Positions 879-59,682 are shown, numbered from the stretch's first letter. The stretch: 64,000 nucleotides of DNA from Candidatus Sulfomarinibacteraceae bacterium (GCA_963796455.1 CAWCLO010000001.1:1120001-1184000), one strand, 5' to 3'. A program made the numbers and translations. The notes: generated by a model not told the origin, from the sequence alone.

Positions 879-888
879 AGAAGGCCAG

Positions 889-923
889 AGGCTAAAGGCT
901 TTAGGCTGTAAGCTATAGGCTGT
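889..923. repeat. Degenerate heptamer left arm (AGGCTNN x5)
   Basis: AGGCTAA AGGCTTT AGGCTGT AAGCTAT AGGCTGT; roughly the reverse complement of the 1048-1217 array. Confidence 0.65.
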
Positions 924-935
924 TGTGGCTTTGAT

Positions 936-1000
936 TCTGTCGCCCCTTCAGGGCTGGTTATTCGGGGAGGGCACGGTACCTGGGGCTCGCGCCCCAAGGG
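936..1000. repeat. REP-like palindromic element (CGCCCCTTCAGGGCT ... CCTGGGGCTCGCGCCCCAAGG)
   Basis: Two short GC hairpins inside the inverted heptamer arms. Confidence 0.45.
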
Positions 1001-1070
1001 TGCCGCGACGGACAATTCCAATTCTCTGATCCGGAGGCTGTTCGGTCACAGCCTTTGTCCTAAAGCTGAA

Positions 1071-1217
1071 AGCTCATAGCCCATAGCTCATAGCCCATAG
1101 CCCATAGCTCATAGCCCATAGCCCATAGCTCATAGCCCATAGCCCATAGCTCATAGCCCATAGCTCATAGCCCATAGCCCATAGCCCATAGCTCATAGCC
1201 CATAGCCCATAGCCCAT
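1071..1217. repeat. Tandem heptamer array AGCYCAT x21
   Basis: 21 units counted: 14 AGCCCAT and 7 AGCTCAT. Confidence 0.97.
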
Positions 1218-1239
1218 AGGCTTTTTGATTGCCCTCGAG

Positions 1240-1761
1240 CTACTGAGCGACTCCCTCGTCGGCAAAATCACCCGGATCGTACGAATCGCCGTCGCCGGCC
1301 CTTTTCATCTGTTCGCGGACCATCTGCATATGCTCGACTTCTTCCTGCCGGAGTTCGGTAAAAAGCTCCCGAACCTCCGGGTCCTCGACTTCCGGCAACG
1401 CGCCATCGAAGAACTCGAAGGCCTTGGTTTCAGCCGCGAGCGCCACCGCGAGCGCATCCTGGATGGTCATGAAGGTCTTCGCCACCTCGTATCCGGGTGC
1501 CTCCACGTCCCACAGCAATGAGCTATCGACGTTGGTTTCCTGGTCGCCAAAGAGCTCGTTTCGTTTGGCCCGCAGTTCCTCGCCGTGCTTGGCCTCACAC
1601 CCGACCATGAAGCGGAAGAAGCGTGCCGCGTCGGCGGTGTTGTGAAGCTCGAGATTGTCCGCCAGTTCGCTATACCGCTGCTCAGCCTCGTCCTCGACCA
1701 GAATCGCCAGATCGAGGGCATCTTTGATCGACAAATTCGCGAATTCGATGTCAACGCTCAT
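1240..1761 (-). CDS. Rubrerythrin/ferritin-like di-iron protein
   Basis: Paired E...ExxH motifs (EDEAEQRY...EAKH; ETKAFEFF...EVEH). Confidence 0.85.
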   Translation of the reverse strand: MSVDIEFANLSIKDALDLAILVEDEAEQRYSELADNLELHNTADAARFFRFMVGCEAKHGEELRAKRNELFGDQETNVDSSLLWDVEAPGYEVAKTFMTIQDALAVALAAETKAFEFFDGALPEVEDPEVRELFTELRQEEVEHMQMVREQMKRAGDGDSYDPGDFADEGVAQ

Positions 1762-1835
1762 TTTCCTGCCTACTCCCTTGAAGCTGTCCCGAACATGAAT
1801 GACTCTTCCTCTTCACCCCACCGACCTCAGCCTGA

Positions 1836-2621
1836 TCAGCCGAGGATGACTCCCCGCTTGGAAGTCGCGATGAATTCCAACACGAAATCAACATCCTTCT
1901 GACCCGCAAGCTCCTCATGGGCTTTTTCGACGGCTTGTGAGAGGTTGAGCTTCGGACTGTGAAGCAGCCGCCAAAGCTGTTTCAGCGCCTTCCGGCGGTC
2001 CTCCGAAAAACCCTTGCGTTCGAGACCGATGGTATTGGGCCCGTAACATTTTGGAGGACGGTTGCCGACTGTGCTCATGAACGGTAGACAGTCCTTGGCG
2101 GCGGCCGTAAAACCACCCAGGAACGCGTATTCGCCGACTCTGGTGAATTGGTGAATCGCAGTGATTGCACCTATTGTCGCGAAGTCGGCGACATCCACGT
2201 GTCCGGCCAAGGTGGCGTTGTTGGCGAAGATGGTGTTCGAACCCACGTTGCAGTCGTGCGCGATGTGGACGTAAGCCATGAAGAGGCTCGAACTGCCGAT
2301 ACGGGTCAGCCCACCACCACCGGGCGTGCCCCTGTGGAGCGTGACAAATTCGCGAAATGTATTGCCGTCACCGATTTCGAGGCGGGTCGCCTCACCTTCG
2401 TATTTGAGGTCCTGAGGCGGTGCGCCGACCGAGCAATGGCTTTCGAATCGATTGCCCACGCCGACGGAGGTCCCGGTACCGAACCTGCAAAACGGTCCGA
2501 TCTCGCAATCGGCACCGATCTCGACTCCATTCTCGATGACAGTGTAGGGGCCCACCGACACGCCATCGGCGATGACCGCGCCGGGATCAATGACCGAGCT
2601 CGGATGAATATGCGCCGGCAT
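1836..2621 (-). CDS. lpxA: UDP-N-acetylglucosamine acyltransferase
   Basis: IHPSSVID start, hexapeptide repeats, PQDLKY, HIAHDC; ATG at 2621 overlaps the fabZ stop. Confidence 0.95.
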   Translation of the reverse strand: MPAHIHPSSVIDPGAVIADGVSVGPYTVIENGVEIGADCEIGPFCRFGTGTSVGVGNRFESHCSVGAPPQDLKYEGEATRLEIGDGNTFREFVTLHRGTPGGGGLTRIGSSSLFMAYVHIAHDCNVGSNTIFANNATLAGHVDVADFATIGAITAIHQFTRVGEYAFLGGFTAAAKDCLPFMSTVGNRPPKCYGPNTIGLERKGFSEDRRKALKQLWRLLHSPKLNLSQAVEKAHEELAGQKDVDFVLEFIATSKRGVILG

Positions 2622-3049
2622 CAGCGGTCCGCCACGGCGCACATCAGTTCAGCTTCGCACACTACGTCACCATCAACCGTGGCACGTCCTCGAATCTTGG
2701 CGAAGCCTCGTTTTTTTGCCATGAGTTGGATCTCGAAGGTCAATTGATCCCCCGGCACGACCGGTTTTCGGAATCTGCATTTGTCGATGCCGGTGAAATA
2801 GATCAACTTATCTCCGCGATCCTCCATAGCGCTCAGGAGAAGAAACCCTCCCGCCTGCGCCATCGCCTCGACGATCAGGACCCCAGGCATCACCGGCACA
2901 CCGGGGAAATGACCCAGGAAATGGGGTTCGTTGAACGTCACGTTCTTGATGGCCCGAATGGACTCCTCGTCCATCTCGACAATCCGGTCGATGAGCAGGA
3001 ACGGGTAACGATGGGGCATCACCGCAAGGATCTCGCCGATATCTCTCAT
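2621..3049 (-). CDS. fabZ: 3-hydroxyacyl-ACP dehydratase
   Basis: [31 protein letters not shown]; start set at ATG 3049. Confidence 0.95.
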
Positions 3050-4077
3050 GATTTCTCCTCCAACTCGGTGAGACGCCTCTCGAGCATTTTGACCGTGTCG
3101 CGCAATTTGCCGATACGCTGCACGTTGGCCTGTGTCTTGAGCCATTCGGCATGGGGCCGTCCCGGGTACCCGGAAAGTGTCACGCCGTCGGGCACGTCCT
3201 TGATGGCTACAGCACGGGCCGCGAGCACGACGCCGTTGCCGATCTTGAGGTGTCCCGAACACCCGGACTGACCGGCAAAAACCGTATGGTGCCCGATCTT
3301 GCTCGAACCCGAGATCCCGACCTGCGCCACCAACAGACAATGTTCGCCGATCTCGACGTTGTGGGCGATCTGGACGAGATTGTCGACCTTTGTGCCGCGA
3401 CCGATCCGGGTCTCGCCGAGCGCTGCGCGATCGACACAGACATTGGCGCCGAGCTCGACATCATCTTCGATCACGACGATGCCAACCTGTCGCACCTTGT
3501 GATGCACGCCCTCGACGGTGGCAAATCCGAAACCGTCGGCGCCGATCACCGTCCCGGAGTGGACGATGCATCGGTCGCCGAGTCGGCAGTGGTCCTCAAC
3601 GACCACCCTTGGATGGAGCCGGCAGTCTGAACCGACGACCACACCGCGGCCCAATATACAGCCCGCAGAGATGACGGTGTTGCTTCCGATGGAGGCACCA
3701 CCGCCAACGGTTGCGAGCGGGCCCACGGATGATCCATCGCCAACGACCGCATCTTCGGCCACAACCGCCGTTGGGTGAATTCCCGCGGGCGGCCGTTCGA
3801 TCGGATGGAAGACATCCACGGCCCTTGCCAAGGCCATGTACGGCTCCTTGCACACAAGAAGGTTGCGGTCCGGGAGCACGGCCGGATCCGCCACCAGAAT
3901 GGCGCCCGCCTTCGAGGCTCGAGCCTCCTCCACATATTTCGGATTGTGAAGAAAACTCAGATCATGAGCTTCCGCCGAATCGAGGGGACGCACCCCTCGA
4001 ATCAACACATCTCCATCACCGACCACCTCGGCCCCGAGATCGACCGCGAGGTCGCCAAGCCGAACCGACTGTGTCAC
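3046..4077 (-). CDS. lpxD: UDP-3-O-acylglucosamine N-acyltransferase
   Basis: Hexapeptide repeats, [19 protein letters not shown]. Confidence 0.95.
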
Positions 4078-4592
4078 TGGACGGTGTTGAACCTCTGAAT
4101 GACCTCGTCCGTGATATCGACCGTCTCATCGGCATACACCAGACCGGACTGGAATTTGTTGAAGATCATCGTGATCCCCTTTTCCTGACCGATCTGATTG
4201 ATGATTGGCAGAATCCTCTCTTCGAGTCCACCGAGCTCTCGCCGGCGTGCCTCTTCGAGCTCTCGCTTGGCATCATCCTCGAAACGACGGATGGCGATCG
4301 TCTTGTCCTCGAGCTCTTTGTTCATTTCCGCCAGGCGTTCCTCGGAAACGGTGAAACGCTGTTTGTTGAACTGGTCCTGAAGGTTGGCGAGGTCCTGCTG
4401 CAGGCCCTGGCCTTCCTGGACCTTGGCGTCGGACAGCACCTTCAGCTTCTGGATGGCTTGTTTGCCGGGATCGGACTCGGAAACTACCCGCTGAACATCG
4501 ATGACGGCGAGGCTGCCTTGCGCCGCCGCCGGAATCGCTATCGCCATCACGAGCGCGGCCACTGCCGCCACAAAACATTTCGAACGATACAT
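4074..4592 (-). CDS. skp: OmpH/Skp periplasmic chaperone
   Basis: Signal peptide, AVIDVQRV, helical body, DITDEVI end; GGAGG before ATG 4592; located between bamA and lpxD. Confidence 0.9.
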   Translation of the reverse strand: MYRSKCFVAAVAALVMAIAIPAAAQGSLAVIDVQRVVSESDPGKQAIQKLKVLSDAKVQEGQGLQQDLANLQDQFNKQRFTVSEERLAEMNKELEDKTIAIRRFEDDAKRELEEARRRELGGLEERILPIINQIGQEKGITMIFNKFQSGLVYADETVDITDEVIQRFNTVQ

Positions 4593-4608
4593 GAGGTCCT
4601 CCATATGC

Positions 4609-7029
4609 TTAAAATGTGGTCCCGATCGAGAACTGGAAATCACTCTGTTTCTCGTCCGGGTACGGGTCAAGATTGTAACCATAAATAAACCGAATGGGAG
4701 CCTGGAAGATGGGGAGGAAGATCCGGATCTCAGCACCGGTGGTCCGTCGCCAGAGACTGAAATCCCAGCCCTGCTCATCAACATAGGTATTGCCTGTATC
4801 AAAGAAGAGCACCAACTTGACCGGCCCGCCGATACGAAACTGATATTCGAAATTCAACTGCCAGTATCGATCTCCACCGATGCGAGATCCCCCGGGCGAG
4901 AGGAAGTAAAAACCCTCCTCGGTTCGGGGCAGGACCGAGTAATAGGGAATGCCGCGCAGCGATCGGTCACCGCCGAGGCGATACCGTTCGTAGATCGGGA
5001 TCTCCGAATTGTTGTAGGTGAGGAACTGTCCCGCCTCACCGTGGAAGGCCAGGGTGGCCTTTTTGCCCCACGGATGGAAAATCGTATAGCCGATCTCCGG
5101 TCGCACATAGTCGTAGTCGCCACCGAGGATTCCACCGGCCAGCCTCATCCTCAAATGGTAGGCTTTTCCCCTATTGGGGTCGAAAGGGTCATCCTTCGAG
5201 TCGAAATTGTATCCCGGGGTGAAGGAATGGGTCTTGCCGGTGAATTCCTCGAAGGCATATTCGAAGGACTGACCGTCGATCGGTGGGATGCTCGACGGCC
5301 GGTTGTGGCCGGAAGTCGGGTCGCCGATGGTTCCCCCCTGACTCACCACGAAGCGGGAATAATCATCCTGAAAGGACAGGATGCCAGACACCGACGAAAA
5401 GGGGCCGACCCCGAGACCGGTGGAGAGCGAAAAGCCCCTGGTGGTGCGTTCGTAGTCCGAGCGACCGGCGTTGGTCACTTTGATGCTGCTTTGATAGATC
5501 GAAGCACCCAGAAGAATCCGGCGATCCAGGAAATAGGGTTCGGTGTAACTCAGTGAATACAGGTCCGTGCGACGACCCAATTGCAGGGACACGCCGAGGG
5601 TGTTGCCCCGTCCCATGAGGTTCCGGGTGTTGAACTGCCCCTGGATGAAGAAACCGTCAAGCTCGGAGTAGCCGGCCCCGAACTGAATATCGTTGCGACC
5701 GACCTCATTGCCTCTGACCTTGACATTCACCTTTCGGTTCTCATCGTCAAAATCAAATTCGAGAGGCTCTTCTTCGAGTTTCCAGTAACCGAGGGCATTG
5801 ACCTTGAAAACCGAGGCCCGGAAAATGGCCATATTCATGTACTGACCCTCGGAAATTCGAAATTCACGGCGTAGAACCTTGTCACGGGTCGTCGTATTGC
5901 CGACGAACTCGAGCCGACCCAATCGGAACCGTTCACCCTCGAAGACATCGACGACCACATCGACGACATAGTCCTCGCCCTCACGCCGCGCGAAGGTCTG
6001 GTTGGTATATGCGTAGACGTAGCCCGAGTTGTGATAGCCCTCGCGGATCTTCTCCATTCCTTCCTCGATCACCTTGCGGTTGTACAACCCCCCTTCCTGG
6101 ACCGGGAAGACCGACTGGGTGAACTCGGGTCGGAAAATTTCCGCACCCTCCACCTTGAAAGACCCCAACGTATAAGCGGGGCCCTCCTCGACGGGAATGG
6201 TGATGTTCATTTGGTACTTCTTCTTTTTCAGGGTTTCGGCGTCGGGCTTTTTGGCAATCAACTCGATAACGGGCTCGCCGATCTTGACATCGATATAGCC
6301 CTTGTTGCCATAGAAGTTTCGCAGGTTGTCGCGATCTGTATCCCAGTTTTCCCGGGTGTAGATCAACTTCCCACCAAAGAAGTTGCGGAGGCTTTTTTGC
6401 TTGGTCTCCTCGAGCACCCCTCTCAGCTTCGAGTCCTTGAACACGGTGTTTCCAGCAAAATCAATGGAACTGATCTTGACCTTGCCACCCTCGTCGATGA
6501 AATAGGTGATCTGCTTTTTGTTGGCCGCCGCATCCGCCACTTCGTACCGGACCTGAGCCGAACGAAATCCGTCGGTATCGTAGACCTCCTTGATCGCAGA
6601 TTGGATGCGCCCCAATTGCGCCATCTTGAGCGGCACATTGCGTGGGATCTCCACACCTTTTTCATCGAGCTTGTCTTTGAGGTCGGCCGTCTTGATCTTC
6701 TTGTTGCCCTCGAAAAGAACGGTTGTGACAAAGGGCCGCTCGATGACCACGATGTACAAGTTGACCGTCCCGTCGCCGTTGTCCTCGGCATCAACCTGAA
6801 TGTCCTCGAACAGCCCTGAGTCCCACAGCCGCCGATAGCCGTCGGTGATCAACTCGATATCCACCGGATCCTCGGGTTCCAGCCCGAGATAGTAGGAAAC
6901 CGTATCGACAGTCAGGGTCACGCCGCCCTCGACAACGATGTCGCGAATGATCATCTCGCCCTCTTGCGCGGACGCACCGACCGCACCGAGGCACAGAAGA
7001 CAGACGAGCAGGGCAGTGGAAAGCCTCAC
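4609..7029 (-). CDS. bamA: Outer membrane protein assembly factor BamA
   Basis: POTRA repeats (GNTTTRDKVLRRE), LGGDRSLRG loop motif, C-terminal FQFSIGTTF. Confidence 0.95.
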   Translation of the reverse strand: MRLSTALLVCLLCLGAVGASAQEGEMIIRDIVVEGGVTLTVDTVSYYLGLEPEDPVDIELITDGYRRLWDSGLFEDIQVDAEDNGDGTVNLYIVVIERPFVTTVLFEGNKKIKTADLKDKLDEKGVEIPRNVPLKMAQLGRIQSAIKEVYDTDGFRSAQVRYEVADAAANKKQITYFIDEGGKVKISSIDFAGNTVFKDSKLRGVLEETKQKSLRNFFGGKLIYTRENWDTDRDNLRNFYGNKGYIDVKIGEPVIELIAKKPDAETLKKKKYQMNITIPVEEGPAYTLGSFKVEGAEIFRPEFTQSVFPVQEGGLYNRKVIEEGMEKIREGYHNSGYVYAYTNQTFARREGEDYVVDVVVDVFEGERFRLGRLEFVGNTTTRDKVLRREFRISEGQYMNMAIFRASVFKVNALGYWKLEEEPLEFDFDDENRKVNVKVRGNEVGRNDIQFGAGYSELDGFFIQGQFNTRNLMGRGNTLGVSLQLGRRTDLYSLSYTEPYFLDRRILLGASIYQSSIKVTNAGRSDYERTTRGFSLSTGLGVGPFSSVSGILSFQDDYSRFVVSQGGTIGDPTSGHNRPSSIPPIDGQSFEYAFEEFTGKTHSFTPGYNFDSKDDPFDPNRGKAYHLRMRLAGGILGGDYDYVRPEIGYTIFHPWGKKATLAFHGEAGQFLTYNNSEIPIYERYRLGGDRSLRGIPYYSVLPRTEEGFYFLSPGGSRIGGDRYWQLNFEYQFRIGGPVKLVLFFDTGNTYVDEQGWDFSLWRRTTGAEIRIFLPIFQAPIRFIYGYNLDPYPDEKQSDFQFSIGTTF

Positions 7030-11323: not shown

Positions 11324-11394
11324 CCGTCCGCCCGCACGGACATATCGAGGCGAGCCGGAAACCCGGCCCTGATTTTGGAATCAACTTCCTCACC

Positions 11395-13796: not shown

Positions 13797-13867
13797 TCCC
13801 TCACACTGGGATTCTCCACCTCGCGGCGGGGTTGGTGATTGTAGCGCGAAGTCGGCGGGAAGGCTAT

Positions 13868-13951
13868 GGGGCTTGGGGCTTGGGGCTTGGGGCTTGGGGC
13901 TTGGGGCTTGGGGCTTGGGGCTTGGGGCTTGGGGCTTGGGGCTTGGGGCTT
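13868..13951. repeat. Tandem heptamer array GGGGCTT x12
   Basis: 12 perfect units; degenerate inverted partner CAAGCCC CAGGTCC CGGGTCT CGAGCCT at 13981-14008. Confidence 0.97.
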
Positions 13952-17190: not shown

Positions 17191-17256
17191 GTCGACAATG
17201 ATGCCACAGGCGGCAGACTTTCTCCCCTTCCCCTGTCAGTCTCGGCGCCCGAGTTG

Positions 17257-17772
17257 CAGCGGCAGCGACAGTGTCCAGCGTCAGCGTCAGCGACAGCGGC
17301 AGCGGTCAGGAGTACAGGCGGCGAAGTGGCCACCACCGGGTCGTTCAAAAGAAGGGGTAGCCGGTGGGCGGCCGAGTCGGTAGAGACCGGTCGAATCACT
17401 GGAGAATCGCCTACGCCTCGGCGAAAGAGGTCGACAGCCACTTGCTACTCCTCGCCCACGCCGGAGCGATCAGCCCTAACGGAGCCAGTGAAGCGATGAA
17501 CGCCTTCGATCAAGTCCGTGCCATGACCTGGCGGCTGCTGAACCCGAAGAAGTGATTGCAGTCGCTGTCCCGGCCGCTGGTCGCTGCCGCTGACTCCTGT
17601 TCTCTGACGCTGTTCCCTGTCGCCGTCCCTGAACGATAGCCGACACCCTGTCTTGAACAAGAGTGATCCAGCATCTAGCATCCAGCATCGAGTATCGAAG
17701 GGCCGGACGGCTCTCCCTTTCCCCCCTTCTCCCTTTCTCCCTTTCCCTTTCCCCCCTGCCCTCTGCCCCCCT
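17257..17772. mobile_element. Composite STR-flanked cassette: (CAGCGD)n - conserved leader - four-helix-bundle remnant - (HCGCTG)n - TCTTG/CAAGA motif - (CCAGCAT)n - C/T-rich octamers
   Basis: Blocks shared with 36394-36623, 48742-49100, 59261-59680 and 34593-34817. Confidence 0.65.
17364..17555 (+). pseudogene. C-terminal fragment of a four-helix-bundle (23S rRNA IVP / TIGR02436-like) protein
   Basis: GRxGRDRxxHWRIAYASAKEVDSHL...FDQVRAMTWRL matches the family GR...IAxxSxxE pattern; N-terminal half absent. Confidence 0.7.
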
Positions 17773-19488: not shown

Positions 19489-19776
19489 AGGATGCTGGAT
19501 GCGGAATCCGCCACCCAACCCATCCGATCCCGTTCCCGATCCCGCAAGCACGCAGGGGAGAAAGGGGGAAAGGGGGAAAGGGAGATCCATCTCAGACATG
19601 GCAGAGGGCAGAGGGGCAAGGGGGCAGAGGAGAAAGGGAGGCCGTCGGTCCGTTCTGTGGTTCACCTTCACATCGACAGCGATGTCCTCTCTGCGTTCAC
19701 CTGCGTGATCTGCGGTTTCTCCTGGGTTGTTCGGCGAAATCCGAAATCCGAAATCCGAAATTCCTAATTCCTAATC
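19489..19776. repeat. Intergenic STR mosaic (GATGCTG, CCCGWT, GGGRGAAA, GCAGAGGG, TCTGCGTNA, ATCCGAA)
   Basis: Read directly; 19630-19775 is homologous to 55333-55556. Confidence 0.8.
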
Positions 19777-24615: not shown

Positions 24616-24760
24616 GGAGGGGGATGGTAGCAGACCGGTCCCCATCTCGATGCTGGATGCTCGAACCGCCACATAGCAGAGGGGCGGAGGGGCAAGGGGG
24701 CAGAGGGAAAAAGGGGAACCTTTCGGCACCGGTTTCGCACGCACGCGAATGCCGCCTCCC

Positions 24761-24882
24761 GATGTCATCCTGAGCGGAGCCCCAAAGGGGCGCAGTCGAA
24801 GGATCTACGGCGCACACGGGAGAGACCCAAGACCGCAGATCCTTCGACTCGGCCGTCGGACGGCCTCGCTCAGGATGACATC
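24761..24882. repeat. REP doublet (REPIN-like) with 16-bp terminal inverted repeats
   Basis: GATGTCATCCTGAGCG...CGCTCAGGATGACATC with inner IR AGTCGAAGGATCT/AGATCCTTCGACT; second copy at 44748-44869. Confidence 0.88.
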
Positions 24883-24892
24883 TTGAACGACG

Positions 24893-25000
24893 GTTCCGAT
24901 CCCGAGCCCGATCCCGTTCCCGAAAGGGAGAAAGGGGGAAAGGGAGAAAGGGAGAAAGGGGAAAGGGGGAAAGGGGGAAAGGGGGAAGGGGAAGAGGGAG
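24893..25000. repeat. CCCGWT hexamers followed by a GGGRGAAA octamer array
   Basis: Read directly; shorter homologue at 44881-44937. Confidence 0.85.
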
Positions 25001-25040
25001 AACCGTACCGGAAGCTCTGTACATGATAAGGAGCGGGTGT

Positions 25041-25160
25041 CCTCTGCTCCTCTGCTCCTCTGCTCCTCTGCTCCTCTGCTCCTCTGCTCCTCTGCTCCTC
25101 TGCTCCTCTGCTCCTCTGCTCCTCTGCTCCTCTGCTCCTCTGCTCCTCTGCTCCTCTGCT
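25041..25160. repeat. Tandem octamer array CCTCTGCT x15
   Basis: 15 perfect units; degenerate inverted arm GCAGAGGG at about 24676-24707. Confidence 0.97.
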
Positions 25161-25215
25161 CGACGAACCCATCTCGATCACGGTCTCTTCAAGGGAATTC
25201 CGCTATGCTTCGGGC

Positions 25216-30795: not shown

Positions 30796-30884
30796 GGTCG
30801 GTATTCTAGCTTGGATTCACCGGAAGTTGCCCGATTGACAACACGAGTCTTACGGGTCGGTCTTTGGTTTGTCCGAATCTCGGT

Positions 30885-31044
30885 TGGCCCGTGCCCGCGT
30901 CCGCGTCCGCGTCCGCGCCCGAATTGCAGCGGCAGCGGCACGATGCAGCGACAGATAGCAGCGTCCAGGAACGGCGAACAGGGGCGGTTATTCGGAGGCA
31001 GTTCGCTGTCGCAATCCGAGACTCTGTCCCGAACAAGAGTGAGC
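30885..31044. repeat. Collapsed STR cassette (CCGCGT, CAGCGD arms, CAAGAGTGA motif)
   Basis: GCGCCCGAATTGCAGCGGCAGCG matches 17245-17267; CTGTCCCGAACAAGAGTGAGC matches 17648-17668. Confidence 0.65.
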
Positions 31045-34592: not shown

Positions 34593-34817
34593 GGATGCAG
34601 GATGCAGGATGCAGGATGCAGGATCCTGGATCCTGGATGACTCTTGCCCAAGACAAGGTCATGGACAACGATCAGGGACAGCGACGGCGAACACTGATCG
34701 CTGTCCCTGTTCGCCGATTCCTGTCGCCGACGCTGCCACTGGACACTGCCCCTGCAGCCCGAGTTTCGGTCCGCACTGATCCAGCATCGACCATCGAGAA
34801 TCGAGTATCAAGCATCC
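34593..34817. repeat. Nested inverted STR cassette: (GGATGCA)4/(GGATCCT)2 ... CAGCGA/TCGCTG core ... (CCAGCAT-like)n
   Basis: Same outer arms and TCTTG-N2-CAAGA motif as 59261-59680, with the centre deleted. Confidence 0.78.
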
Positions 34818-36282: not shown

Positions 36283-36313
36283 ACCCCCACCCTCGTGGTG
36301 GGGGTTTGTTTTT
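36283..36313 (+). terminator. Rho-independent terminator
   Basis: ACCCCCACC-CTCGT-GGTGGGGGT followed by TTGTTTTT. Confidence 0.8.
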
Positions 36314-36393
36314 GGCATTTCCTGTTCGCGGTTGACCCGTACCCGTACCCGTTCCGGCTCCCGTGCCCAAATCGAAGCGACAACCACAGTATC

Positions 36394-36623
36394 CAGCGGC
36401 AGCGACAGGGCTCAGAGACAGCGATCAGCGACAGGAAACAGCGATCAGTGTTCAGCGGCAGCGGTCAGGGGCCGCGACGGCGTGGCCATCTCCGGGTTGT
36501 TCAACAGAAGGGAAAGCTTTTGTGGTGCAGGCGTCTCGCCTGCACACCGTGCGGCCGAGAAGGCCGCACCTCAATAGCCGCGGTCCCGAAGAAGTGCGCG
36601 CTGAACGCTGTCGCTGAACCCTG
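36394..36623. mobile_element. STR-flanked cassette with a REP doublet in place of the four-helix-bundle ORF
   Basis: (CAGCGD)n, leader TCAGG...GTGGCC...CCGGG..GTTCAACAGAAGG, REP 36521-36574, tail CCCGAAGAAGTG, (CGCTG)n. Confidence 0.7.
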
Positions 36624-36784
36624 TACGAGACGCTGCCTCGGCACGAGTGTTCGAGTTTTGACCTTGTGCGAAGGCCATTCGATAGCGCGAGCGAATCCGG
36701 CCCTGATGGGAATGGTCTCGGGAAAATCGGTTCATCTCCCACGAATTTGGTGCCCCCATCTCACGGCTGCGCCATAATTGCTCT

Positions 36785-37258: not shown

Positions 37259-37460
37259 AGAGACCGCAGATCACGCAGATGAGCGCAGATCGCCGGACAC
37301 TCGCCTGGACGTTGGTTGGCACCAGGACATCGCAACCACGAAGGCACGAAGACACCAAGACGGACACAAAGGAAATCCTCCGTGAGTTTCTTCGTGCCTT
37401 TGTGTCTTTGTGTTTGCGACGTGGCGGGAGGGGCTCTAGGACAGGGAACGGCAACGGACC
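37259..37460. repeat. STR mosaic: CGCAGATNA nonamers; inverted CACGAAGR / CTTCGTGC octamers
   Basis: ACCGCAGATCACGCAGATGAGCGCAGAT; CACGAAGGCACGAAGACAC ... CTTCGTGCCTTTGTGTCTTTGTG. Confidence 0.75.
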
Positions 37461-37718
37461 TTATTCGAGGCCCAACGCGGCGAAGGTCGAGGAGCCCCCC
37501 CGGAATCCGATGGAGACCCGCTCGTGATCAACCACCACCGGCAGGCGGTGCTCCCAGCAAAGACCGCGCAACCGGCCCATCTCATGTGGTTCTAGGGTGA
37601 GATTGATCTCGCGGAAGACGACCCCGCGGCGTTCAAAGTCGCGACACAGAGCGCTGCAGTGAGGACAACCCTCGGCGGTGAAGACCAGGAGGGTGTCGAG
37701 AGCGGCCACCCTAGCCAA
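37461..37718 (-). CDS. Small glutaredoxin-like protein (CPHC)
   Basis: VFTAEGCPHC, LPVVVD, VSIGF; start may be GTG 37709. Confidence 0.75.
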   Translation of the reverse strand: MARVAALDTLLVFTAEGCPHCSALCRDFERRGVVFREINLTLEPHEMGRLRGLCWEHRLPVVVDHERVSIGFRGGSSTFAALGLE

Positions 37719-37726: not shown

Positions 37727-37847
37727 TTCGAATTCGGAGTTCGGAGTTCGGAGTTCGAAGTTGGGCAACGCATCCACCGGAGATTCAAACGCTGACGTGA
37801 GGTTTTCGGGCGGGATTTTCGAATTCCGAATTCCGAATTCCGAACTC
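37727..37847. repeat. Inverted heptamer arms (TTCGGAG)n ... (TTCCGAA)n
   Basis: About 4 units on each side around a 55-nt spacer. Confidence 0.85.
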
Positions 37848-44570: not shown

Positions 44571-45017
44571 CAGCCCGAGCCCGAGCCAGGCAGAGGTGCA
44601 GAGGAGCGGAGGGGCCTAGCGCCCATCGCTATCGGAATCGCTATCGACGGTAAGATCGACCCACCAATCGGCGGAGAGGAAAAACGGCAAGTGAGAAAAT
44701 GAGAACCACTCGGCAAGGATTTCTCCTGAATGGAAACGTCGCCTCCCGATGTCATCCTGAGCGGAGCCCCACAGGGGCGGAGTCGAAGGATCTATGAGAT
44801 GGAACGGAGCCATCCCAGACCGCAGATCCTTCGACTCCGCGCTCGAAGCGCTGCGCTCAGGATGACATCTTGAACGACAGTTCCGTTCCCGATCCCGATC
44901 CCGAAAGGGAGAAAGGGGGAAAGGGAGAAAGGGAGAACCGTATCGGAAGTTCTGTTCGTAATAAGGAGTGGGCATTCCAAATTCCGAATTCCGAATTCCG
45001 AATTCTTCCTCTGCACC
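44571..45017. repeat. STR mosaic with REP doublet (44748-44869)
   Basis: 44740-44972 is homologous to 24753-25037; ends in (ATTCCGA)n. Confidence 0.85.
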
Positions 45018-47298: not shown

Positions 47299-48750
47299 GT
47301 GTCGGTGGAGCTCAAAGAGCTGCTCATGTTCATGACCAAAAAGGGTGCGTCTGACCTTCACATCAAACCGATGCGGCCGCCGCTGCTGAGGATTCAAGGT
47401 CGACTCATACCGATCAAGGCGGACCCGCTCAAACCGGACGAGGTCGAGGACATGCTCGGGAGTATCCTCAAACCCGCCCAGAAGGAGCGCTTTGCCACCA
47501 GCCAGGCCGTGGATATGGGTTACGGCGTTCCTGGAGTCGCACGCTTTCGCTGCAACATGTATATGCAGCGCGGAACCATGGCGGCGGTCTTTCGACGCGT
47601 GCCATTCGAAATCCAGAGCGCTGACAAGCTCAATCTCCCCGAGGTCATCAACTCCTTTACCGAATACCCCGGCGGTCTGGTGCTCATCACCGGCCCGACG
47701 GGCTCCGGAAAATCAACCTCGTTGGCAGCAATGATCAACCTCATCGCCAAGGCTCGCCAGTGCCATGTCGTGACCATTGAAGACCCGATCGAGTTTCTTT
47801 TTCAGGATGACAAGGCGACGATTTCGCAGCGCGAGGTGGGGACCGACACCCCAACCTTTCACGAGGCGCTCAGAAACTGCATGCGCCAGGACCCCGATGT
47901 CATCATGGTTGGTGAGATGCGCGATCCGGAGACCATGGCGACCGCGATCACCGCAGCGGAGACCGGCCATCTGGTCTTTTCCACCCTTCACACCAACAGT
48001 GCCGCCCAGACTGTCGACCGGATCATCGATTCGTACCCGGCCGACCAACAGACCCAGATCCGAGGCCAACTCGCCCTCGTCCTGAGGGCGATCGTTTCCA
48101 TGCAGTTGGTGGAGAACAAGGACGGGACCGAACGGCTGCCGGCCTGTGAGATCCTCATCAACTCACCAAAGATCTCGAAACACATCGAAAACGGAGAGAT
48201 CAAGGAAATTTTCGAGGAGATGGAAAACTCCGTCAATTTCTACCGCATGCAGAGCATGAACCAGTCGTTGATCGCACTCCTCGCCCACAGCCAGATCACC
48301 TACGAACAGGCGATCGACGCCTCGGCAGATCCCGATGACCTGTCGCTCAAGCTGAGGGAGATGTTTCCAAATATCGAGGAGCAATTCAGGGAGGGTGAGA
48401 TGTCCCCGTCACCAGCAGATTTTTCGCAGATCACCGAACTGCTTGAAACCAAGCAGATGTATGAAGAGACCGAAGAACGCCACCGCGTGAAAATGGGCGA
48501 GAAGGACGAACAGATCGAAACCCTCGAAAGTGATTTGGCGGCCTTGCGCGAGCAACTTCAGCAAACCGCCGAGAGCACCGACGGATTGCGGCGCGAGGCC
48601 GAGATCGCCCGTTCCGAAGTGCAGCGGGCACGGGAAGAATCGCAGCAGAAGATCAATGCCCTCAACGAGCGGATCCGCGAACTCAACCAGCAACTTCAGG
48701 GCGAAAATGGCGCCGGTGGTAAGGGTTCCTCGGGCTTCTTCAAGCGCTGA
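47299..48750 (+). CDS. pilT: PilT/PilU-family ATPase with C-terminal coiled-coil extension
   Basis: ASDLH, GPTGSGKST, TIEDPIE, RQDPDVIMVGEMRD, AETGHLVFSTLHT. Confidence 0.85.
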   Translation: MSVELKELLMFMTKKGASDLHIKPMRPPLLRIQGRLIPIKADPLKPDEVEDMLGSILKPAQKERFATSQAVDMGYGVPGVARFRCNMYMQRGTMAAVFRRVPFEIQSADKLNLPEVINSFTEYPGGLVLITGPTGSGKSTSLAAMINLIAKARQCHVVTIEDPIEFLFQDDKATISQREVGTDTPTFHEALRNCMRQDPDVIMVGEMRDPETMATAITAAETGHLVFSTLHTNSAAQTVDRIIDSYPADQQTQIRGQLALVLRAIVSMQLVENKDGTERLPACEILINSPKISKHIENGEIKEIFEEMENSVNFYRMQSMNQSLIALLAHSQITYEQAIDASADPDDLSLKLREMFPNIEEQFREGEMSPSPADFSQITELLETKQMYEETEERHRVKMGEKDEQIETLESDLAALREQLQQTAESTDGLRREAEIARSEVQRAREESQQKINALNERIRELNQQLQGENGAGGKGSSGFFKR

Positions 48751-48806
48751 ACGCATTCGATCAGGTCCGTGCCATGACATGGCGACTGTTAAACCCGACG
48801 AAGTGA
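48742..48806 (+). pseudogene. Second four-helix-bundle 3' remnant (ALNAFDQVRAMTWRLLNPTK*)
   Basis: Colinear with 17491-17555. Confidence 0.75.
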
Positions 48807-49100
48807 ATGCTGTTCGCTGTCGCTGCCCCGGCCGCTGGTCGTTGCCGCTGACTCCTGTTCGCCGACGCTGTCCCTCGCTGTCCCTGATCACCATCCGCGA
48901 AGCTGTTTTGGACAAGAGCGATCCAGCATCCAGTATCGAGTACAGGGTATCGAGCGACTATACGGTTCTCCCTTTCTCCTCCGCACCCGTGCCCCTCTGC
49001 CCCTCTGCCTTTTCCTCCAAGGTAACTTGCAGGAACGGGTTCGAGATCGGAGAGGTCGGTCTCCCTTTCTCCCCTTCTCCCTTTCCCCCTTTCTCCCTTA
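48807..49100. repeat. Right half of the STR cassette (HCGCTG, CAAGA motif, CCAGCAT, CCCCTCTG, CCCTTTCT)
   Basis: Colinear with 17556-17772. Confidence 0.85.
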
Positions 49101-49136
49101 CTCCTCACTGCGCTATCATGACCCGCCGGGGGAGCT

Positions 49137-50492: not shown

Positions 50493-50606
50493 GACGCTAA
50501 CAGGACCGTTCTCGCAGTCGCAATCGGCATCCAACCCGCCTGGCCAACACCAATCTGACATGCCGATAGCGACAGCACCCTCATCCTGAAGGGGAGTCGC
50601 GAATCC

Positions 50607-52266: not shown

Positions 52267-52284
52267 CAAACCTCCCTCCCGGTG

Positions 52285-53862: not shown

Positions 53863-54170
53863 GACTCACCGGCTTTCCGCTGTGCGAAAGCGGGGTGGCG
53901 TGGCCACGGGGTTCTGTCTCCTTCCGCTGCAGCACCAATGGTGAGAAGCCCGGTCTTCGAATCACGGCAGTGCCACCGCCGGCTCGAAACCAACCAACAC
54001 GTCCTGGCTCGCCATCTCAGTCCATTCCAATCCGCCGAAAGAATGAGTCCGCCACACACAAGACATCACCGCGCGAGCATTTGAAAACTGCAAACGGGCC
54101 CAAGCTGTCAACCTGCGTGCGTCAATTCGATCATACCCTGCGTAACGCGCAACGGCCGACTGGACTGGTG

Positions 54171-55070: not shown

Positions 55071-55150
55071 CCTGCCTCCTTTTTCACTGAGCGTACGGAT
55101 CAGAATACAGGTTCTGAGGCTCTGGATCGAGCAGAAAATCTGCTCCGCAC

Positions 55151-55557
55151 GATACTCGATGCTGGATGCTCGATACTGGATGCTGGATGCTGGATGCTGG
55201 ATGCTGGATTCCGATCCAGGATGGCAGAGGAGCACGGGAGCGGAGGGGCAGAGGACCGCTCGGCATCTTCGCTGTCGCTATCGGGATCGCTATCGCTATC
55301 GAACGGCTGCGGTGGATACCTTTCCTGAAAGGGAGAAAGGGAGACAGTAGGTCCGCTCTTTTCGATCGCCACCACATCGACAACGATTCCGAATGTGAAT
55401 CTTATCTGCGTAGATCCTTCGACTCGGTCGCGAAGCTCCTTCGCTCAGGATGACATTCGGCCAGTGGTGCCACGGCCAACACAGCCTCATGTCATCTGCG
55501 TGATCTGCGGTTTCTCATGGGATGTTCGGCGAATTCCGAAATCCGAATTCCTAATTT
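55151..55557. repeat. STR mosaic: (GATGCTG)n, GCAGAGG, ATCGCT, GGGAGAAA, half REP (55412-55456), TCTGCG nonamers, (TTCCGAA)n
   Basis: Read directly; homology to 19630-19775 and to the REP at 24837-24882. Confidence 0.85.
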
Positions 55558-56166
55558 TCAAAATTCTGGTTCGCGTTTCTCGAGAAAGGCCCGTGCTCCT
55601 TCGGCCGGGTCGCCGGAGGCAAAGAGCAATCGAAAGGTGGCCAATTCCAGGGCGAGGCCGGCGCTGCCGGTCGCCGACGAGCGGATGAGATCGCGCACCG
55701 ACGTCAAAGCCGGCACCGAAGAGGCGGTGGGCAAGGGCAGCGGATCGCCGGTGGGGATCACCGCCTCCGCCAATCCAATCGTGGCCGCCTCGGTTGCTGC
55801 CACGTCGGCAGTATCGAGCAGACCACGGAACAGAGCACGGCGCCCACGCCGAGTGAGTGCCCAGAGAACGCCCGGATTGGGCGCCGCCGAACTCAGCGAG
55901 AGCCTGAGAATCGCGTCCGGTCGGAGGTAGACGAGGTCAGAACACAGAGCCACCTCCAGCGCGGGAGATGCCACCGTCCCGGCGACATCGGCCACCGTGA
56001 CGGCACGGCTACGGGTCCAGGGTTCAAGGTCACCCCATGCGATGGCCTCACCGTCACCGCCCTGACGGAACTCGGTAATCAAATAACCCGGTTCAAGGGA
56101 GAGATCGACCAGATCGCGGAGCTGCCGTGCCGGATCGAGATCGTGATTCCAACGAGCTGGATTCAT
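55558..56166 (-). CDS. Degenerate enoyl-CoA hydratase/crotonase-like protein
   Basis: ALCSDL, EAATIGL and C-terminal D.AEGARAFLEKREPEF; glycine oxyanion motifs not recognisable. Confidence 0.6.
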   Translation of the reverse strand: MNPARWNHDLDPARQLRDLVDLSLEPGYLITEFRQGGDGEAIAWGDLEPWTRSRAVTVADVAGTVASPALEVALCSDLVYLRPDAILRLSLSSAAPNPGVLWALTRRGRRALFRGLLDTADVAATEAATIGLAEAVIPTGDPLPLPTASSVPALTSVRDLIRSSATGSAGLALELATFRLLFASGDPAEGARAFLEKREPEF

Positions 56167-56489
56167 GTCCCAAAGTGTAGCCCGGATATCCGAAAGAGCA
56201 GGCGATCGAGATCATCAATTCTGGGGCCTGGAGATGATCTTACGGAAAGCCGGAGGCGGTGACGACGAAAATTTGATCCAGCAATTGTGATATCGAGACG
56301 ACGCCCGACCTTGCGGTCGCACCCGGCACGTTCTCGGGCCGGATTGCGTTGCGGAATCGACTCCGCCCCACACCCCGTTTCCGCGTCTAGCAACCTTCAT
56401 GCCCAAAACACGATTCAAACTCGGCACGCGTCAAAGAAATCTCTTTTAAATACATGCATTGAAATCACTTAACTCAATTCTGAAGAATA

Positions 56490-56498
56490 TGTTACAAT
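56490..56498 (+). promoter_or_regulatory. Putative extended -10 promoter (TGtTACAAT) for pepA in an AT-rich tract
   Basis: AT-rich 56430-56500; GGAGG RBS at about 56520. Confidence 0.45.
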
Positions 56499-56538
56499 AC
56501 GCGGCCGAATCGAAAACAGGGAGGAATCACCTCACTTT

Positions 56539-58029
56539 ATGGCAGATCTGCACCAGTTCCGTACAGCCCCCGAAGAACCCCTCGATTGTATTTACATCCT
56601 GCAGGGCACCGGTAAGGATCCCATCGGGGATCTCGAGTTCTCAGCCAAGGAAAGAAAGTCTCTGCGAGCCAAGGCCAAGGCACTTGGCCCCCAAGGCGAA
56701 GCGGGCGAGATCATTTCGGGCGAGTGTCCCCTGGATATTGCGCACCGGATGACCTTTGTCGGTGTCGGCGACGAGAAGAAGATCACTCATTCGACCATGC
56801 GCAAGGCCCTCAACACGGTCATGCAGCAAGCGACGAAGAACCGCGAATACCAGATCGGCCTCGCCGTTCCGGTGCGGGTCCACGGCCTCTCGGAGGCCGA
56901 CTCACGCCTCTTTGCGCTGCGTGAGGCTTCGATCTCGGACTACACCTACGATGTCTTCAAATCAAAAAAGAATGAGTTCGAGAAGATCGATGGTCTCCAC
57001 ATCTTCCCGCTCGCAAAAGAGACCGAGGAGTTGCTCGAAGAGCGGCTTCAAAGGGTTCGCCTGCTGAGAACCTCGCAGCAGCTTGCTCGCGATCTCGGAA
57101 ATCGCCCCGCAAACGATCTCACCCCGGAAGCTTTCGGCGTCGCCGCCAAAGAGATGGCCGAAGAGGTCAGCGGTCTTCGGGTCACGATCATGGGAATGAA
57201 AGAGCTGCTCAAAGACAAAATGGGCGGCATCCTCGGTGTGAGCCAGGGCTCGGCCGAGGAACCACGGATGATCGTGATCGAGCACCGTCCAAAAAAACCG
57301 AAAAAATCGATTGTGCTGATCGGCAAGGGCGTGACCTTTGATTCCGGTGGAATCTCCCTCAAACCCTCCAAGGGCATGGGGTGGATGAAGTACGACATGT
57401 GTGGCGCTGCCACCGTGATGGGTGTGATGAGGGCAGTCGCCGACCTCGATCTGCCGATCAAGGTCGTCGGCCTGATTCCGGCGGTCGAAAACCTGCCCTC
57501 AGGCACCGCCATCAAACCGGGCGACGTGCTGACCATGGCCAGCGGCAAGACCGTTGAAGTCGACAACACCGATGCGGAAGGCCGTTTGATCCTGGCCGAC
57601 GCCCTGCATTTTTCCGCTCGCTTCAACCCCGACATCGTCATCGACTATGCGACTCTCACCGGGGCCTGTGTGGTTGCTCTGGGTCATGAAGCCGCCGGAC
57701 TCATGGGCAACGACGATGACCTCCTTGAAACCCTGAAAAAGATCGGTGAGGGCGTTGGAGAACGAGTCTGGCCGATGCCGCTCTACGAGGAGTATCTGAG
57801 CTACCTCAAGAGCGATTGGGCAGATCTCAAGAACGCCGGCAGCCGCTGGGGCGGTTCCTTGACGGCGGGCTGCTTCCTGGAACAGTTTGTTCCCGAGAAG
57901 GTCAGTTGGGCGCACCTCGATATCGCGGGGGTCGCGTACAACGAGCACGAGCACAACGGTCTTCCGACCGGGGCTTCAGGCTTTGGAGTTGTTTTGACGG
58001 TCAACTTCCTCGAGCAACTGTTGAAGTAG
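56539..58029 (+). CDS. pepA: Leucyl aminopeptidase (M17)
   Basis: GKGVTFDSGG, MKYDMCG, NTDAEGRL, ATLTGA, WAHLDIAG. Confidence 0.95.
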   Translation: MADLHQFRTAPEEPLDCIYILQGTGKDPIGDLEFSAKERKSLRAKAKALGPQGEAGEIISGECPLDIAHRMTFVGVGDEKKITHSTMRKALNTVMQQATKNREYQIGLAVPVRVHGLSEADSRLFALREASISDYTYDVFKSKKNEFEKIDGLHIFPLAKETEELLEERLQRVRLLRTSQQLARDLGNRPANDLTPEAFGVAAKEMAEEVSGLRVTIMGMKELLKDKMGGILGVSQGSAEEPRMIVIEHRPKKPKKSIVLIGKGVTFDSGGISLKPSKGMGWMKYDMCGAATVMGVMRAVADLDLPIKVVGLIPAVENLPSGTAIKPGDVLTMASGKTVEVDNTDAEGRLILADALHFSARFNPDIVIDYATLTGACVVALGHEAAGLMGNDDDLLETLKKIGEGVGERVWPMPLYEEYLSYLKSDWADLKNAGSRWGGSLTAGCFLEQFVPEKVSWAHLDIAGVAYNEHEHNGLPTGASGFGVVLTVNFLEQLLK

Positions 58030-58055
58030 CAGTGCCGATCCAAATCGGAGAAACC

Positions 58056-58082
58056 AAACGCCGCGGTCGACGCGGCGTTTTT
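58056..58082 (+). terminator. Rho-independent terminator-like hairpin
   Basis: AAACGCCGCG-GTCGA-CGCGGCGTTT-TT. Confidence 0.6.
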
Positions 58083-58099
58083 CCGTTGCCGGGGGGGCC

Positions 58100-59242
58100 G
58101 TGAACACGCCGCTGGCTATGCCCTCATCTCTGAAAATCGGACCTATCGAAGTATCACCACCGGTTGTTCTCGCACCGATGGCCGGGGTCACAAACTATCC
58201 CTTTCGAACCATCTGTCGCCGCTACGGTGCCGGTCTCTACATCAGCGAGATGATTACCGCCAGGCCGCTGGTGGACGGCCACGAAAAGACCCTCAAATTG
58301 GCCGACTTCGGCCCCGGTGAAAGCCCCCGCAGCCTGCAACTCTACGGAGTCGATCCACACTACGTGGGTGAAGCGGTCTCCAGGCTGGTCGGAGAGGGAC
58401 GCATCGACCATCTCGACCTCAATTTCGGCTGCCCGGTCCGCAAGGTGACCCGCAAGGGAGGCGGTGCCGCAATCCCCGCCAAACCCCGTCTGTTGACCGC
58501 CATAATTCGCGCTGCGGTTCGCGCGGCAGGCGAGGTTCCGGTGACCATCAAGTTCAGAAAAGGCATCGATGACGACCACCTCTCGTACCTCGAATCGGGA
58601 CACATCGCCGAGAGTGAAGGCTGCGCCGGCGTCACCCTGCACGCCAGGACCGCAGCCCAACTCTATGACGGCCGGGCCGATTGGGACGCGATCGGCGAGC
58701 TCAAACAGGCTCTTTCCACAATTCCTGTGATCGGCAACGGCGACATCTGGGTGGCCGCCGACGCCATGAGAATGGTGCGCCAAACCCAGTGTGACGGCGT
58801 CGCCATCGGCCGCGGTTGTCTCGGCCGGCCCTGGCTCTTCCAGGACCTCGACGACGCATTTTGCGGCCGAGAGCCCCGCACTCCCCCTGATTTTGGAGAA
58901 GTTGCGGATCTCATGATCGAACACCTTCACATGCTCGCGGAGTGGTTCAACGAGTCGCAGGCGATCCGAGGTTTTCGCAAACACGCCGGTTGGTATACGA
59001 GAGGTTTTGCTTCCAGCGCGCAACTTCGCGACCGGCTGATGCGGGTGCAATCGGTGTCGGAATTCGAAAACGTGGTCGCAACCGTCGACCGTTCGTTGCC
59101 CTATCCACAATCAGCCCATCTGGTCCGCCGCGGCAAACGCAGCGGAACCCAGAAAGTTGTCCTTCCCAACGGATTCTGGGACGACCCGAACGACGCCACC
59201 CCTCCAGATGCCGAGGCGGAACAGAACATCTCCGGGGGCTGA
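58100..59242 (+). CDS. dusB: tRNA dihydrouridine synthase DusB
   Basis: LAPMAGVT, DLNFGCP, LHART, IGNGDI, IGRG. Confidence 0.92.
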   Translation: MNTPLAMPSSLKIGPIEVSPPVVLAPMAGVTNYPFRTICRRYGAGLYISEMITARPLVDGHEKTLKLADFGPGESPRSLQLYGVDPHYVGEAVSRLVGEGRIDHLDLNFGCPVRKVTRKGGGAAIPAKPRLLTAIIRAAVRAAGEVPVTIKFRKGIDDDHLSYLESGHIAESEGCAGVTLHARTAAQLYDGRADWDAIGELKQALSTIPVIGNGDIWVAADAMRMVRQTQCDGVAIGRGCLGRPWLFQDLDDAFCGREPRTPPDFGEVADLMIEHLHMLAEWFNESQAIRGFRKHAGWYTRGFASSAQLRDRLMRVQSVSEFENVVATVDRSLPYPQSAHLVRRGKRSGTQKVVLPNGFWDDPNDATPPDAEAEQNISGG

Positions 59243-59260
59243 AGTCCACACGGTCACTCA

Positions 59261-59682
59261 GATGGCAGATACCAGATGCTGGATGCTGGATCACTCTTGT
59301 CCAAGACAGAATCTCGGAAAGCTTTCAGGGACAGCGACAGAGAACGGTAGACAGCGTCAGCGAACAGGAATCAGCGGCAGCGATCAGGAGTCCAGGCGAC
59401 GAAGTGGCCTCCTCCGGGTGGTTCAACAGAAGGAAAAGCCGTTGTGGTGTCGGCGTCTCGCCTGCACACCGTGCGGCCGAGACGGCCGCACCACAAAGGC
59501 CGGAGCCCGAAGAAGTGAATGCTGTTCGCTGTCCCGGCCGCTGATCGCTGTCGCTGATGACTGACCGCTGCCGCTGAATACTGTTCGCCGACCCTGTCCC
59601 TGCCGCTGTTCGCTGTCCCGGAACGCTGTCATCGCCAATAGTGATCCAGCATCTGGTATCTAGTATCCAGCATCGAGCATCA
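59261..59682. mobile_element. Most complete nested STR cassette: (GATGCTG)n - TCTTG/CAAGA - (CAGCGD)n - leader - REP doublet - tail - (HCGCTG)n - (CCAGCAT)n
   Basis: All blocks read directly and shared with the 17.3, 34.6, 36.4 and 48.8 kb copies. Confidence 0.75.

Follow-up and report, generated by a model that had tools for sequence, protein, structure and literature searches.

Intergenic short-tandem-repeat arrays of a Candidatus Sulfomarinibacteraceae bacterium are probably inverted arms of intervening-sequence-type gene cassettes, one of them copied by an IS4-type shell

Introduction

What are the short tandem repeats that lie between the genes of this bacterium, and how did they come to be there? 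The question is raised by a stretch of 64,000 nucleotides from Candidatus Sulfomarinibacteraceae bacterium (GCA_963796455.1, CAWCLO010000001.1; G000:C1:1120001-1184000), which we call the window and number from its first letter. It belongs to a genome of 5.02 Mb with 60% GC that is 90.5%-complete. An original prediction described intergenic regions built from unrelated words of 6-9 bp, paired as left arms and reverse-complement right arms and nested inside one another. It proposed that small repeat-bounded cassettes had inserted and decayed there by a mechanism outside the standard classes of insertion sequence (IS) or of MITE (miniature transposable element with inverted repeats). Here we find that the arrays are most likely the inverted arms, mostly gene-less now, of cassettes of the intervening-sequence (IVS) type. 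One of these, the CAGCG cassette, was copied at least 63 times by an IS4Sa-type shell that inserted mainly into arrays of another word, GATGCWG.

Results

Most of the repeat words are arms of four-helix-bundle (PF05635) or GxxExxY genes, in this genome or in its relatives. PF05635 has 76 matches in the genome, 67 of them above the cut-off, and the CAGCG-armed gene is present in 63 full-length copies, all between called genes. Four single four-helix-bundle genes carry arms of GCAGAGGAG, GGGGCTAT, GGAATTA and ATCGCT, and three GxxExxY loci carry arms of CACAGAG, CGCAAAGAA and CGCAGATNA. For the relatives we examined the 40 strongest PF05635 loci among 310 matches (150 listed), and in 34 of the 40 a word of the left array recurs inverted downstream. 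The words that flank genes there include GATGCTG (L049, L053), GGGGCTT (L046, L051), TTCGGAA (L070, L072, L075) and CCCGTT (L078). The window itself holds two four-helix-bundle remnants (17369-17555 and 48742-48806), found by six-frame reading. The arm pairs do enclose a cargo, as the notion of a cassette implies, and it consists of four-helix-bundle and GxxExxY genes. No intact gene was found between GGAGAAAG or CACGAAGR arms among the genes of this genome or the relatives' loci examined. GIY-YIG was considered as a further cargo; its one match lies in a 668-aa frame and is not a cassette.

The arrays are where they had been reported: Tandem Repeats Finder gives 90 rows in the window, and all 13 intergenic sites named earlier hold their words in place, flanked by ordinary housekeeping genes. 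Genome-wide, 1,650 of 1,895 arrays with a period of 5-10 are non-coding, the genome being 84% coding by a simple gene caller. Seventeen word families, which overlap slightly, return 1,346 arrays, 1,306 of them intergenic; three shuffles of the intergenic DNA returned 0, 1 and 0. Arrays occur in 189 of 407 convergent spacers, 105 of 543 divergent and 294 of 1,486 co-directional ones, and start a median of 36 bp past the stop codon (n=455). The same words, ends and hairpins are found in independent genomes and in contigs of four public runs, and therefore the arrays are not an assembly artefact. The comparison with the runs covered 56500-61000 of the window and used contigs, including those of one RNA run. 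In these contigs the repeat at 59.2-59.7 kb is covered far deeper than its flanks; the closest runs share 0.26 of words, and no contig of the four spans the 59.3-kb site.

Arm order is strongly fixed. With the left word defined from the window or from gene flanks, spacers that hold both arms of one family have the left word first in 104 cases, mixed in 1 and reversed in none, whichever of the four gene orientations the spacer has; for TTCGGA, a semi-palindromic family tallied separately, the counts are 23, 3 and 7. Orientation is thus not random genome-wide (104/105 left-first). The original prediction had also stressed that polarity does not depend on the flanking genes. That part carries no information, because the reverse complement of W...rc(W) reads identically; only the fixed choice of W is informative. 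Nesting, too, stands in part. There are 236 spacers with both left and right arms, and all lefts precede all rights in 204. A same-family pair is present in 126 of the 236 (shuffle mean 53, maximum 73), and the remaining 110, for example those at 19.5 and 55.2 kb, combine only unmatched families.

Outside the CAGCG arms lie conserved 18-bp inverted ends. We counted 270 such ends, which form 74 pairs less than 1.3 kb apart (303-887 bp); a full gene lies inside 30 of these pairs, and 44 are gene-less. The match between left and right flanks of the 74 pairs peaks at 9 bp (0.77, against a shuffled maximum of 0.57), and at 23 shell sites outside arrays the 9-bp match is 0.66, against 0.43. A 9-bp target duplication, the mark of insertion that had been proposed as a check, is therefore found at the shell. 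With IS ends, a transposase-less interior, many copies and this duplication, the shell fits a MITE or mobile insertion cassette. The view that no standard IS or MITE class applies does not survive for the best-resolved unit, which belongs to a standard class: it is a non-autonomous element of the IS4 family, and it has terminal inverted repeats.

Around the shell, the GATGCWG arrays had been read as cassette ends; they are its target. Such an array is touched by 152 of the 270 shell ends, compared with 269 of 5,000 random intergenic 23-mers (~5%), and much of the apparent nesting is therefore insertion into arrays. The target consensus is a palindrome, ATSCWGSAT. Of the 32 pairs that could be fully classified, 28 have direct GATGCWG flanks; in the other 42 pairs a flank is unclassified. 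GATGCWG arrays abound where the shell is absent (263 matches in G015 and 190 in G031, 0 ends in either) and are scarce in the shell-bearing G034 (32 ends, 2 matches), and the arrays are therefore pre-existing targets.

The end motif is present in 12 of 119 genomes of the order. A parent IS with the same ends, a 1,411-bp element at L023:1461-2871 (G017:C434), lies between repeat arrays. It encodes an IS4-type transposase (PF01609 and PF14294; NF033592, E 1.4e-74) with a YREK motif, read as Y-KD-R-WQI-E-LFFKAL-K. Its CA------T ends, length and YREK motif are the features by which we assign it to IS4Sa, a subgroup for which Table 1 of PMC2266710 gives CA------T ends, 1,150-1,750 bp, a repeat of 8-10 bp and YREK. 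Relatives of the element in many phyla share its ends, and perfect 9-bp duplications occur at 8 of 41 related IS loci. The shell of this genome was also seen in another genus (L025, L026; G059, G063), where it encloses CAGCG arms, the leader and the start of the gene and has a perfect 9-bp duplication; this suggests that the shell passed between genera.

Shell and cargo are separable. The shell carries doublets of repetitive extragenic palindromes (REPs) in G008, G032, G033 and G034 and the CAGCG cassette in G006 (26 of 30 loci). The cassette is shell-less in G018 and in many G004 copies. At shell-less cassettes and at the REP module no fixed ends were seen, and no formal duplication scan was made on them. 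In G005, G008, G014 and G016 the CAGCG cassette lies within AACGTT arrays, in a second transposase-less shell with GG(C/T)TCATCCGG ends and an apparent 8-bp duplication, NAACGTTN. Its loci are L087-L112 and L232-L278 (G005, G008, G014, G016, G017, G059-G064), and its junction occurs in 17 of 77 genomes; no parent IS was found among 30 loci. Ten of the 16 intact genes in G008 do not differ from one another at any informative site, so these copies are a recent burst.

The features of the window are as follows, with coordinates and strand (a dot where none applies).

889..1219 (.): gene-less hairpin with an AGGCTRT left arm at 889-921 and a right arm of ATAGCCC x21 at 1071-1219
13862..13951 (.): lone left arm, GGGGCTT x12.7, of the word that flanks four-helix-bundle genes in L046 and L051
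17248..17665 (+): internally deleted CAGCG cassette, with left arm 17256-17305, leader start 17331-17375, 3' half of the four-helix-bundle gene 17369-17555, right arm to 17632 and IS4-type right end 17648-17665
17666..17770 (.): CAGCATC target array 17666-17698, then TCTCCCTT and CCTCTGC right arms
19490..19775 (.): composite spacer, with left arms GATGCTG, CCCGAT, GGAGAAAG and GCAGAGG, right arms of other families (CGCAGAT, TTCGGA, GGAATTA) and linkers common to 55.2 kb
24649..25161 (.): composite spacer, with left arms GATGCTG and GCAGAGG, REP-doublet module 24761-24882, CCCGAT and GGAGAAAG arrays and a right arm of TCCTCTGC x15
30836..31041 (+): gutted CAGCG element, with shell linker remnant, CCGCGT array, CAGCG arms and IS4-type right end 31024-31041
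34593..34817 (.): GATGCWG array, IS4-type end 34639-34656, gutted CAGCG arms, worn end 34761-34778 and CAGCATC array
36309..36624 (+): CAGCG element with leader start 36487-36503 and gene tail 36585-36597, the gene replaced by a REP hairpin at 36516-36574
37265..37413 (.): gene-less CGCAGATNA left arm with CACGAAGR left and right arms
37727..37844 (.): gene-less TTCGGAR/ATTCCGA hairpin 3' of the era gene
44572..45005 (.): composite spacer, with left arms GCAGAGG and ATCGCT, REP-doublet module 44748-44869, CCCGAT and GGAGAAAG arrays and an ATTCCGA right arm
48742..49104 (+): four-helix-bundle 3' tail 48742-48806, CGCTG right arm and IS4-type right end 48903-48920, then a CAGCATC array and further right arms
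55150..55556 (.): composite spacer, with left arms GATGCTG x7, GCAGAGG, ATCGCT and GGAGAAAG, half a REP and right arms CGCAGAT and TTCGGA
59275..59681 (+): dus-site element, with GATGCTG array, IS4-type end 59292-59309, CAGCG left arm, leader start, REP hairpin 59442-59500, gene tail 59506-59518, right arm, worn end 59626-59643 and CAGCATC array

The hairpin at 889..1219 sits between convergent ompW and rubrerythrin genes and has a single-copy loop; words related to its arms flank intact four-helix-bundle genes (C1:983149 here, L047 and L054 in relatives). An Rfam scan of the window at gathering score gave 0 matches (no CRISPR or other Rfam RNA family). Two small reading frames on the minus strand, both below the 100-aa list limit and both conserved in relatives, lie near the arrays: a glutaredoxin-like one after era (37461-37709) and a short Cys-rich one after apbE (~59700-59890).

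We compared three of these sites with their counterparts in relatives, whose genes are 73-76% identical to those of this genome. After dus (59.3 kb), arrays are present in 18 of 19 scorable relatives, 12 of them as a plain gene-less hairpin, with words that include TTCTCAA, CAGTGAT, GAGTTTT and AATTTTG. G018 has an intact shell-less cassette at this site, and G034 a shell with other cargo. In L014 and L015 (G008:C23, G032:C7) the dus hairpin site holds an insert of 3.4-3.9 kb with a kinase/TPR-like gene. After era (37.8 kb), both arms are kept at 18 of 21 scorable loci; the words are swapped among GAATTCG, GAATTAG, GAGTTTT and GAATTTT, and the two sides often differ. Since these hairpins persist across species with differing words, some hairpins are kept during word turnover. 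In most relatives the divergent 34.6-kb site is short and has no arrays, and in G006 the same shell fills it, so the filled and empty states expected of a mobile element do occur. The idea of insertion and decay holds in that cassettes do both, but decay alone does not account for two gene ends that keep a gene-less hairpin.

Intact copies of the CAGCG gene are under purifying selection. By our own rule 55 of the 63 copies are intact (two more start with GTG), and all differ. Among the 55, pS is 0.27, pN 0.045 and dN/dS 0.14, with a singleton pN/pS of 0.40. Private changes in the gene amount to 0.4% per site and duplications differ at 18%; these are different measures, and array slippage inflates the latter. 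Linkage among copies falls from an r2 of 0.16 within 6 bp to ~0.02 beyond 60 bp. Within 15 bp r2 is 0.125, against 0.024 beyond 60 bp, where site permutation gave a maximum difference of 0.019, and 15 clonal simulations showed no decay. The mosaic haplotypes were read from assembled sequence, where polishing chimeras are possible.

The REP-doublet module has 55 copies in the genome, sometimes in tandem; in 44 of the 55 a GGAGAAAG-type end adjoins the module on its left. It was also seen triplicated head-to-tail at G000:C4:880581-881132 and C5:63065-63781, joined at arrays. Left and right arms with different words occur at one site, the era locus of relatives. From the copy mosaics and the modules joined at arrays we infer short-tract recombination with arrays as joints. 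Two REP types have 233 and 120 matches in the genome. The REP hairpin that replaces the gene (36516-36574, 59442-59500; dozens of copies) is the REP that flanks a match to a Y1 transposase of the type associated with REPs (RAYT) at G000:C1:952500-953300. The REPs are putatively of the CGTC type. Apart from these, a 438-aa protein family has five copies, one at G000:C7:285302-286618, and presumably resembles an IS91-type transposase.

The leader of the cassette is a nested hairpin over a GGAGG site, in which 13 of 39 pairs are changed on both sides among 20 relatives' copies. It covers the ribosome-binding site of this four-helix-bundle subfamily (window 17331-17375; L083:1365-1503), and its inner hairpin is replaced or lost in L036, L089 and L096. 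The partial leader copy of the window has no Rfam match. In predicted folding the 59.3-kb element has a z of -10.5 and the era hairpin a z of -2.1.

Discussion

Taken together, our results are probably best explained by four things at once: the arrays are arms of IVS-type cassettes, an IS4Sa shell amplified one cassette, arms were swapped by recombination and RNA hairpins were kept. One CAGCG cassette would have been captured and amplified by an IS4Sa-type shell inserting mainly into GATGCWG arrays, with a transposase presumably provided in trans by an IS that this assembly no longer contains. Recombination at arrays would move the shell-less cassettes and the linker modules. The arms are likely swap points that spread through short-tract recombination. 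As RNA they would form hairpins, and at some gene ends such hairpins probably persist as signals for RNase III-type processing or for stability. Slippage alone, which the original prediction had already set aside, does not suffice, as cassettes insert, decay and pile up in the same spacers. How the repeat-armed cassettes themselves spread, and any role of the four-helix-bundle protein, we infer.

Several observations weigh against this explanation. Thirty-three of the 63 full genes lie outside any detected end pair. Both complete elements of the window (34.6 and 59.3 kb) have inverted, not direct, GATGCWG flanks. These inverted GATGCWG/CAGCATC flanks, on which the original prediction relied, are real but belong to the minority genome-wide, which is why target arrays had been taken for ends. 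The parent IS copy itself has no matching duplication (4 of 9). An end-pair scan to 6 kb, a protein search and a PF01609 search found no cognate transposase in this 90.5%-complete genome. No empty allele was firmly seen in a close strain; one joint runs from 59291 to 59658, with 24 letters on its short side. The two young bursts show less of the mosaic signal: it is weaker in G006, and in G008 it does not reach significance. G-U wobble counts by strand (21 vs 16 at relatives' loci, 38 vs 16 among non-independent copies here) do not indicate a folding strand, and pairing between the two arms of one copy is no better than that between crossed arms. Finally, reverse transcriptase (PF00078) has no match in the genome, at its present completeness, which sets the system apart from diversity-generating retroelements. 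A lone PF01609 match, C7:291107, was considered as the cognate transposase and set aside, as the parent protein does not match it; its own ends were not looked at.

Other explanations have to be weighed. The four-helix-bundle protein matches a solved structure, 2GSC, and its family resembles Avd according to the portion of PMC10053308 available to us. The protein might therefore be a mobility or conversion factor that binds the RNA of its own cassette; together with a polymerase, borrowed or of the host, it would write the arms and bring about homing, the shells merely hitch-hiking. In favour of such a role, most copies are intact, different and constrained (55/63, dN/dS 0.14, singleton pN/pS 0.40) though their duplications are worn (18% mismatch), and G004 has 45 matches, many of them shell-less. 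We think it unlikely, given that no reverse transcriptase was found, the datable bursts (G008, G006 and this genome) that sit in transposon shells, the gene-less shells that multiply too (44 of 74 pairs) and the unrelated GxxExxY genes that are packaged alike. A broader form of the idea seems doubtful, if a little less so. In it the armed four-helix-bundle and GxxExxY cassettes would be a transposase-free homing class and the gene-less hairpins landing pads, overwritten by short-tract recombination that an Avd-like protein promotes; hosts would keep RNase III sites and IS would specialise on single words.

The remaining two explanations concern the arrays rather than the gene. Arrays could be excision footprints, in which two 9-bp duplications are joined through the AT that they share, each cycle adding one heptamer, and 8-bp duplications give AACGTT arrays. 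The target consensus ATSCWGSAT is indeed one unit plus AT, and AACGTT arrays have a period of 7-8 around an 8-bp duplication. We nevertheless hold this to be very improbable and reject footprints as the origin of the arrays, since GATGCTG arrays are abundant in shell-less genomes, scarce in shell-bearing G034 and directly flank four-helix-bundle genes as inverted arms (L049, L053). They also keep their left/right bias, the left half containing 84 of the 89 left words, and most families have no shell at all. Footprints may still lengthen arrays. Alternatively, the hairpins could be host regulatory elements, terminators or mRNA processing stems that arose by slippage and selection for pairing, on which genes and transposons merely land. 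The enrichment in convergent spacers (189/407 vs ~20% elsewhere), the median distance of 36 bp from the stop codon and the persistence of hairpins after era and dus in different species would fit. As an origin this is improbable, for it fails on the vocabulary shared with gene-bearing cassettes, on the W-first polarity and on the shared linkers. It is partly compatible with the explanation we prefer, as a later use by the host.

The preferred explanation, IVS-type cassette arms with an IS4Sa shell around one cassette, joins two known kinds of element, an IVS-type cassette and an IS4 mobile cassette. The 23S rRNA IVS of Coxiella burnetii has terminal complementary arms; tandem GACAGAT heptamers precede its S23p gene, and the first of these repeats holds a site for RNase III, as far as PMC4990558 was available. 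With such IVSs that carry an open reading frame (S23p/PF05635/TIGR02436) our cassettes share the protein family and a gene within complementary arms, and with that of Coxiella also tandem heptamers at the 5' arm and a poor or hidden ribosome-binding site (available text of PMC4990558). Unlike rRNA IVSs, they lie in mRNA spacers, between protein genes, in dozens of copies with many words and with a second cargo family, GxxExxY. Their gene is under purifying selection, whereas the Coxiella frame is reported in that text as decaying (PMC4990558). Like IS4-family mobile insertion cassettes and MITEs (MIC231, known from a title cited in PMC6542083), the shell has transposase-less ends, a passenger and a 9-bp duplication. 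Unlike them, its passenger is an IVS-type cassette or a REP doublet, and one tandem-repeat family is strongly preferred as target. As with the REP-targeting IS described in the part of PMC1525189 consulted, transposition finds its hot spot, and a safe site, in an intergenic repeat that is dispersed. Here, by contrast, the target is a heptamer array, itself the arm of another cassette, and the second shell, in sister species, uses a second array family.

Intergenic heptamer arrays are shared with other bacteria. In Xanthomonas and Nostoc they form inverted pairs (70-75 in Xanthomonas) at conserved positions, of unexplained origin in the available text of PMC4692102, and Beggiatoaceae have intergenic TAACTGA repeats (PMC4679880, likewise in part). 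The available parts of these two papers name no four-helix-bundle or S23 gene, and there one word is found per genome, compared with at least 17 and mosaic stacking here. As in mosaics of REPs (bacterial interspersed mosaic elements) and RAYT-associated REPs (PMC3733652, in the part available), REPs are present and one type flanks a Y1 transposase match; here, however, REPs are passengers and modules, and the repeat arms are not REP palindromes. In the literature searched, which leaves out supplements and subscription journals, we found no description of the combined system or of repeat-armed four-helix-bundle cassettes outside rRNA.

The finding links the S23p/four-helix-bundle IVS gene, intergenic heptamer repeats and cargo-bearing MITEs. 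The IS4 shell with its 9-bp duplication is a demonstrated DNA route for the old idea of a mobile IVS gene, and two transposon shells each use one repeat word as their target. With linkage lost beyond ~60 bp, the 55 intact and mutually different alleles amount to a mutational scan, made by nature, of a protein of unknown function. That gene ends keep their hairpins through the turnover of words points, on the evidence of sequence, to a structural RNA role. If the broader homing idea were true, rRNA intervening sequences and the unexplained heptamer repeats of bacteria would be special cases of one system.

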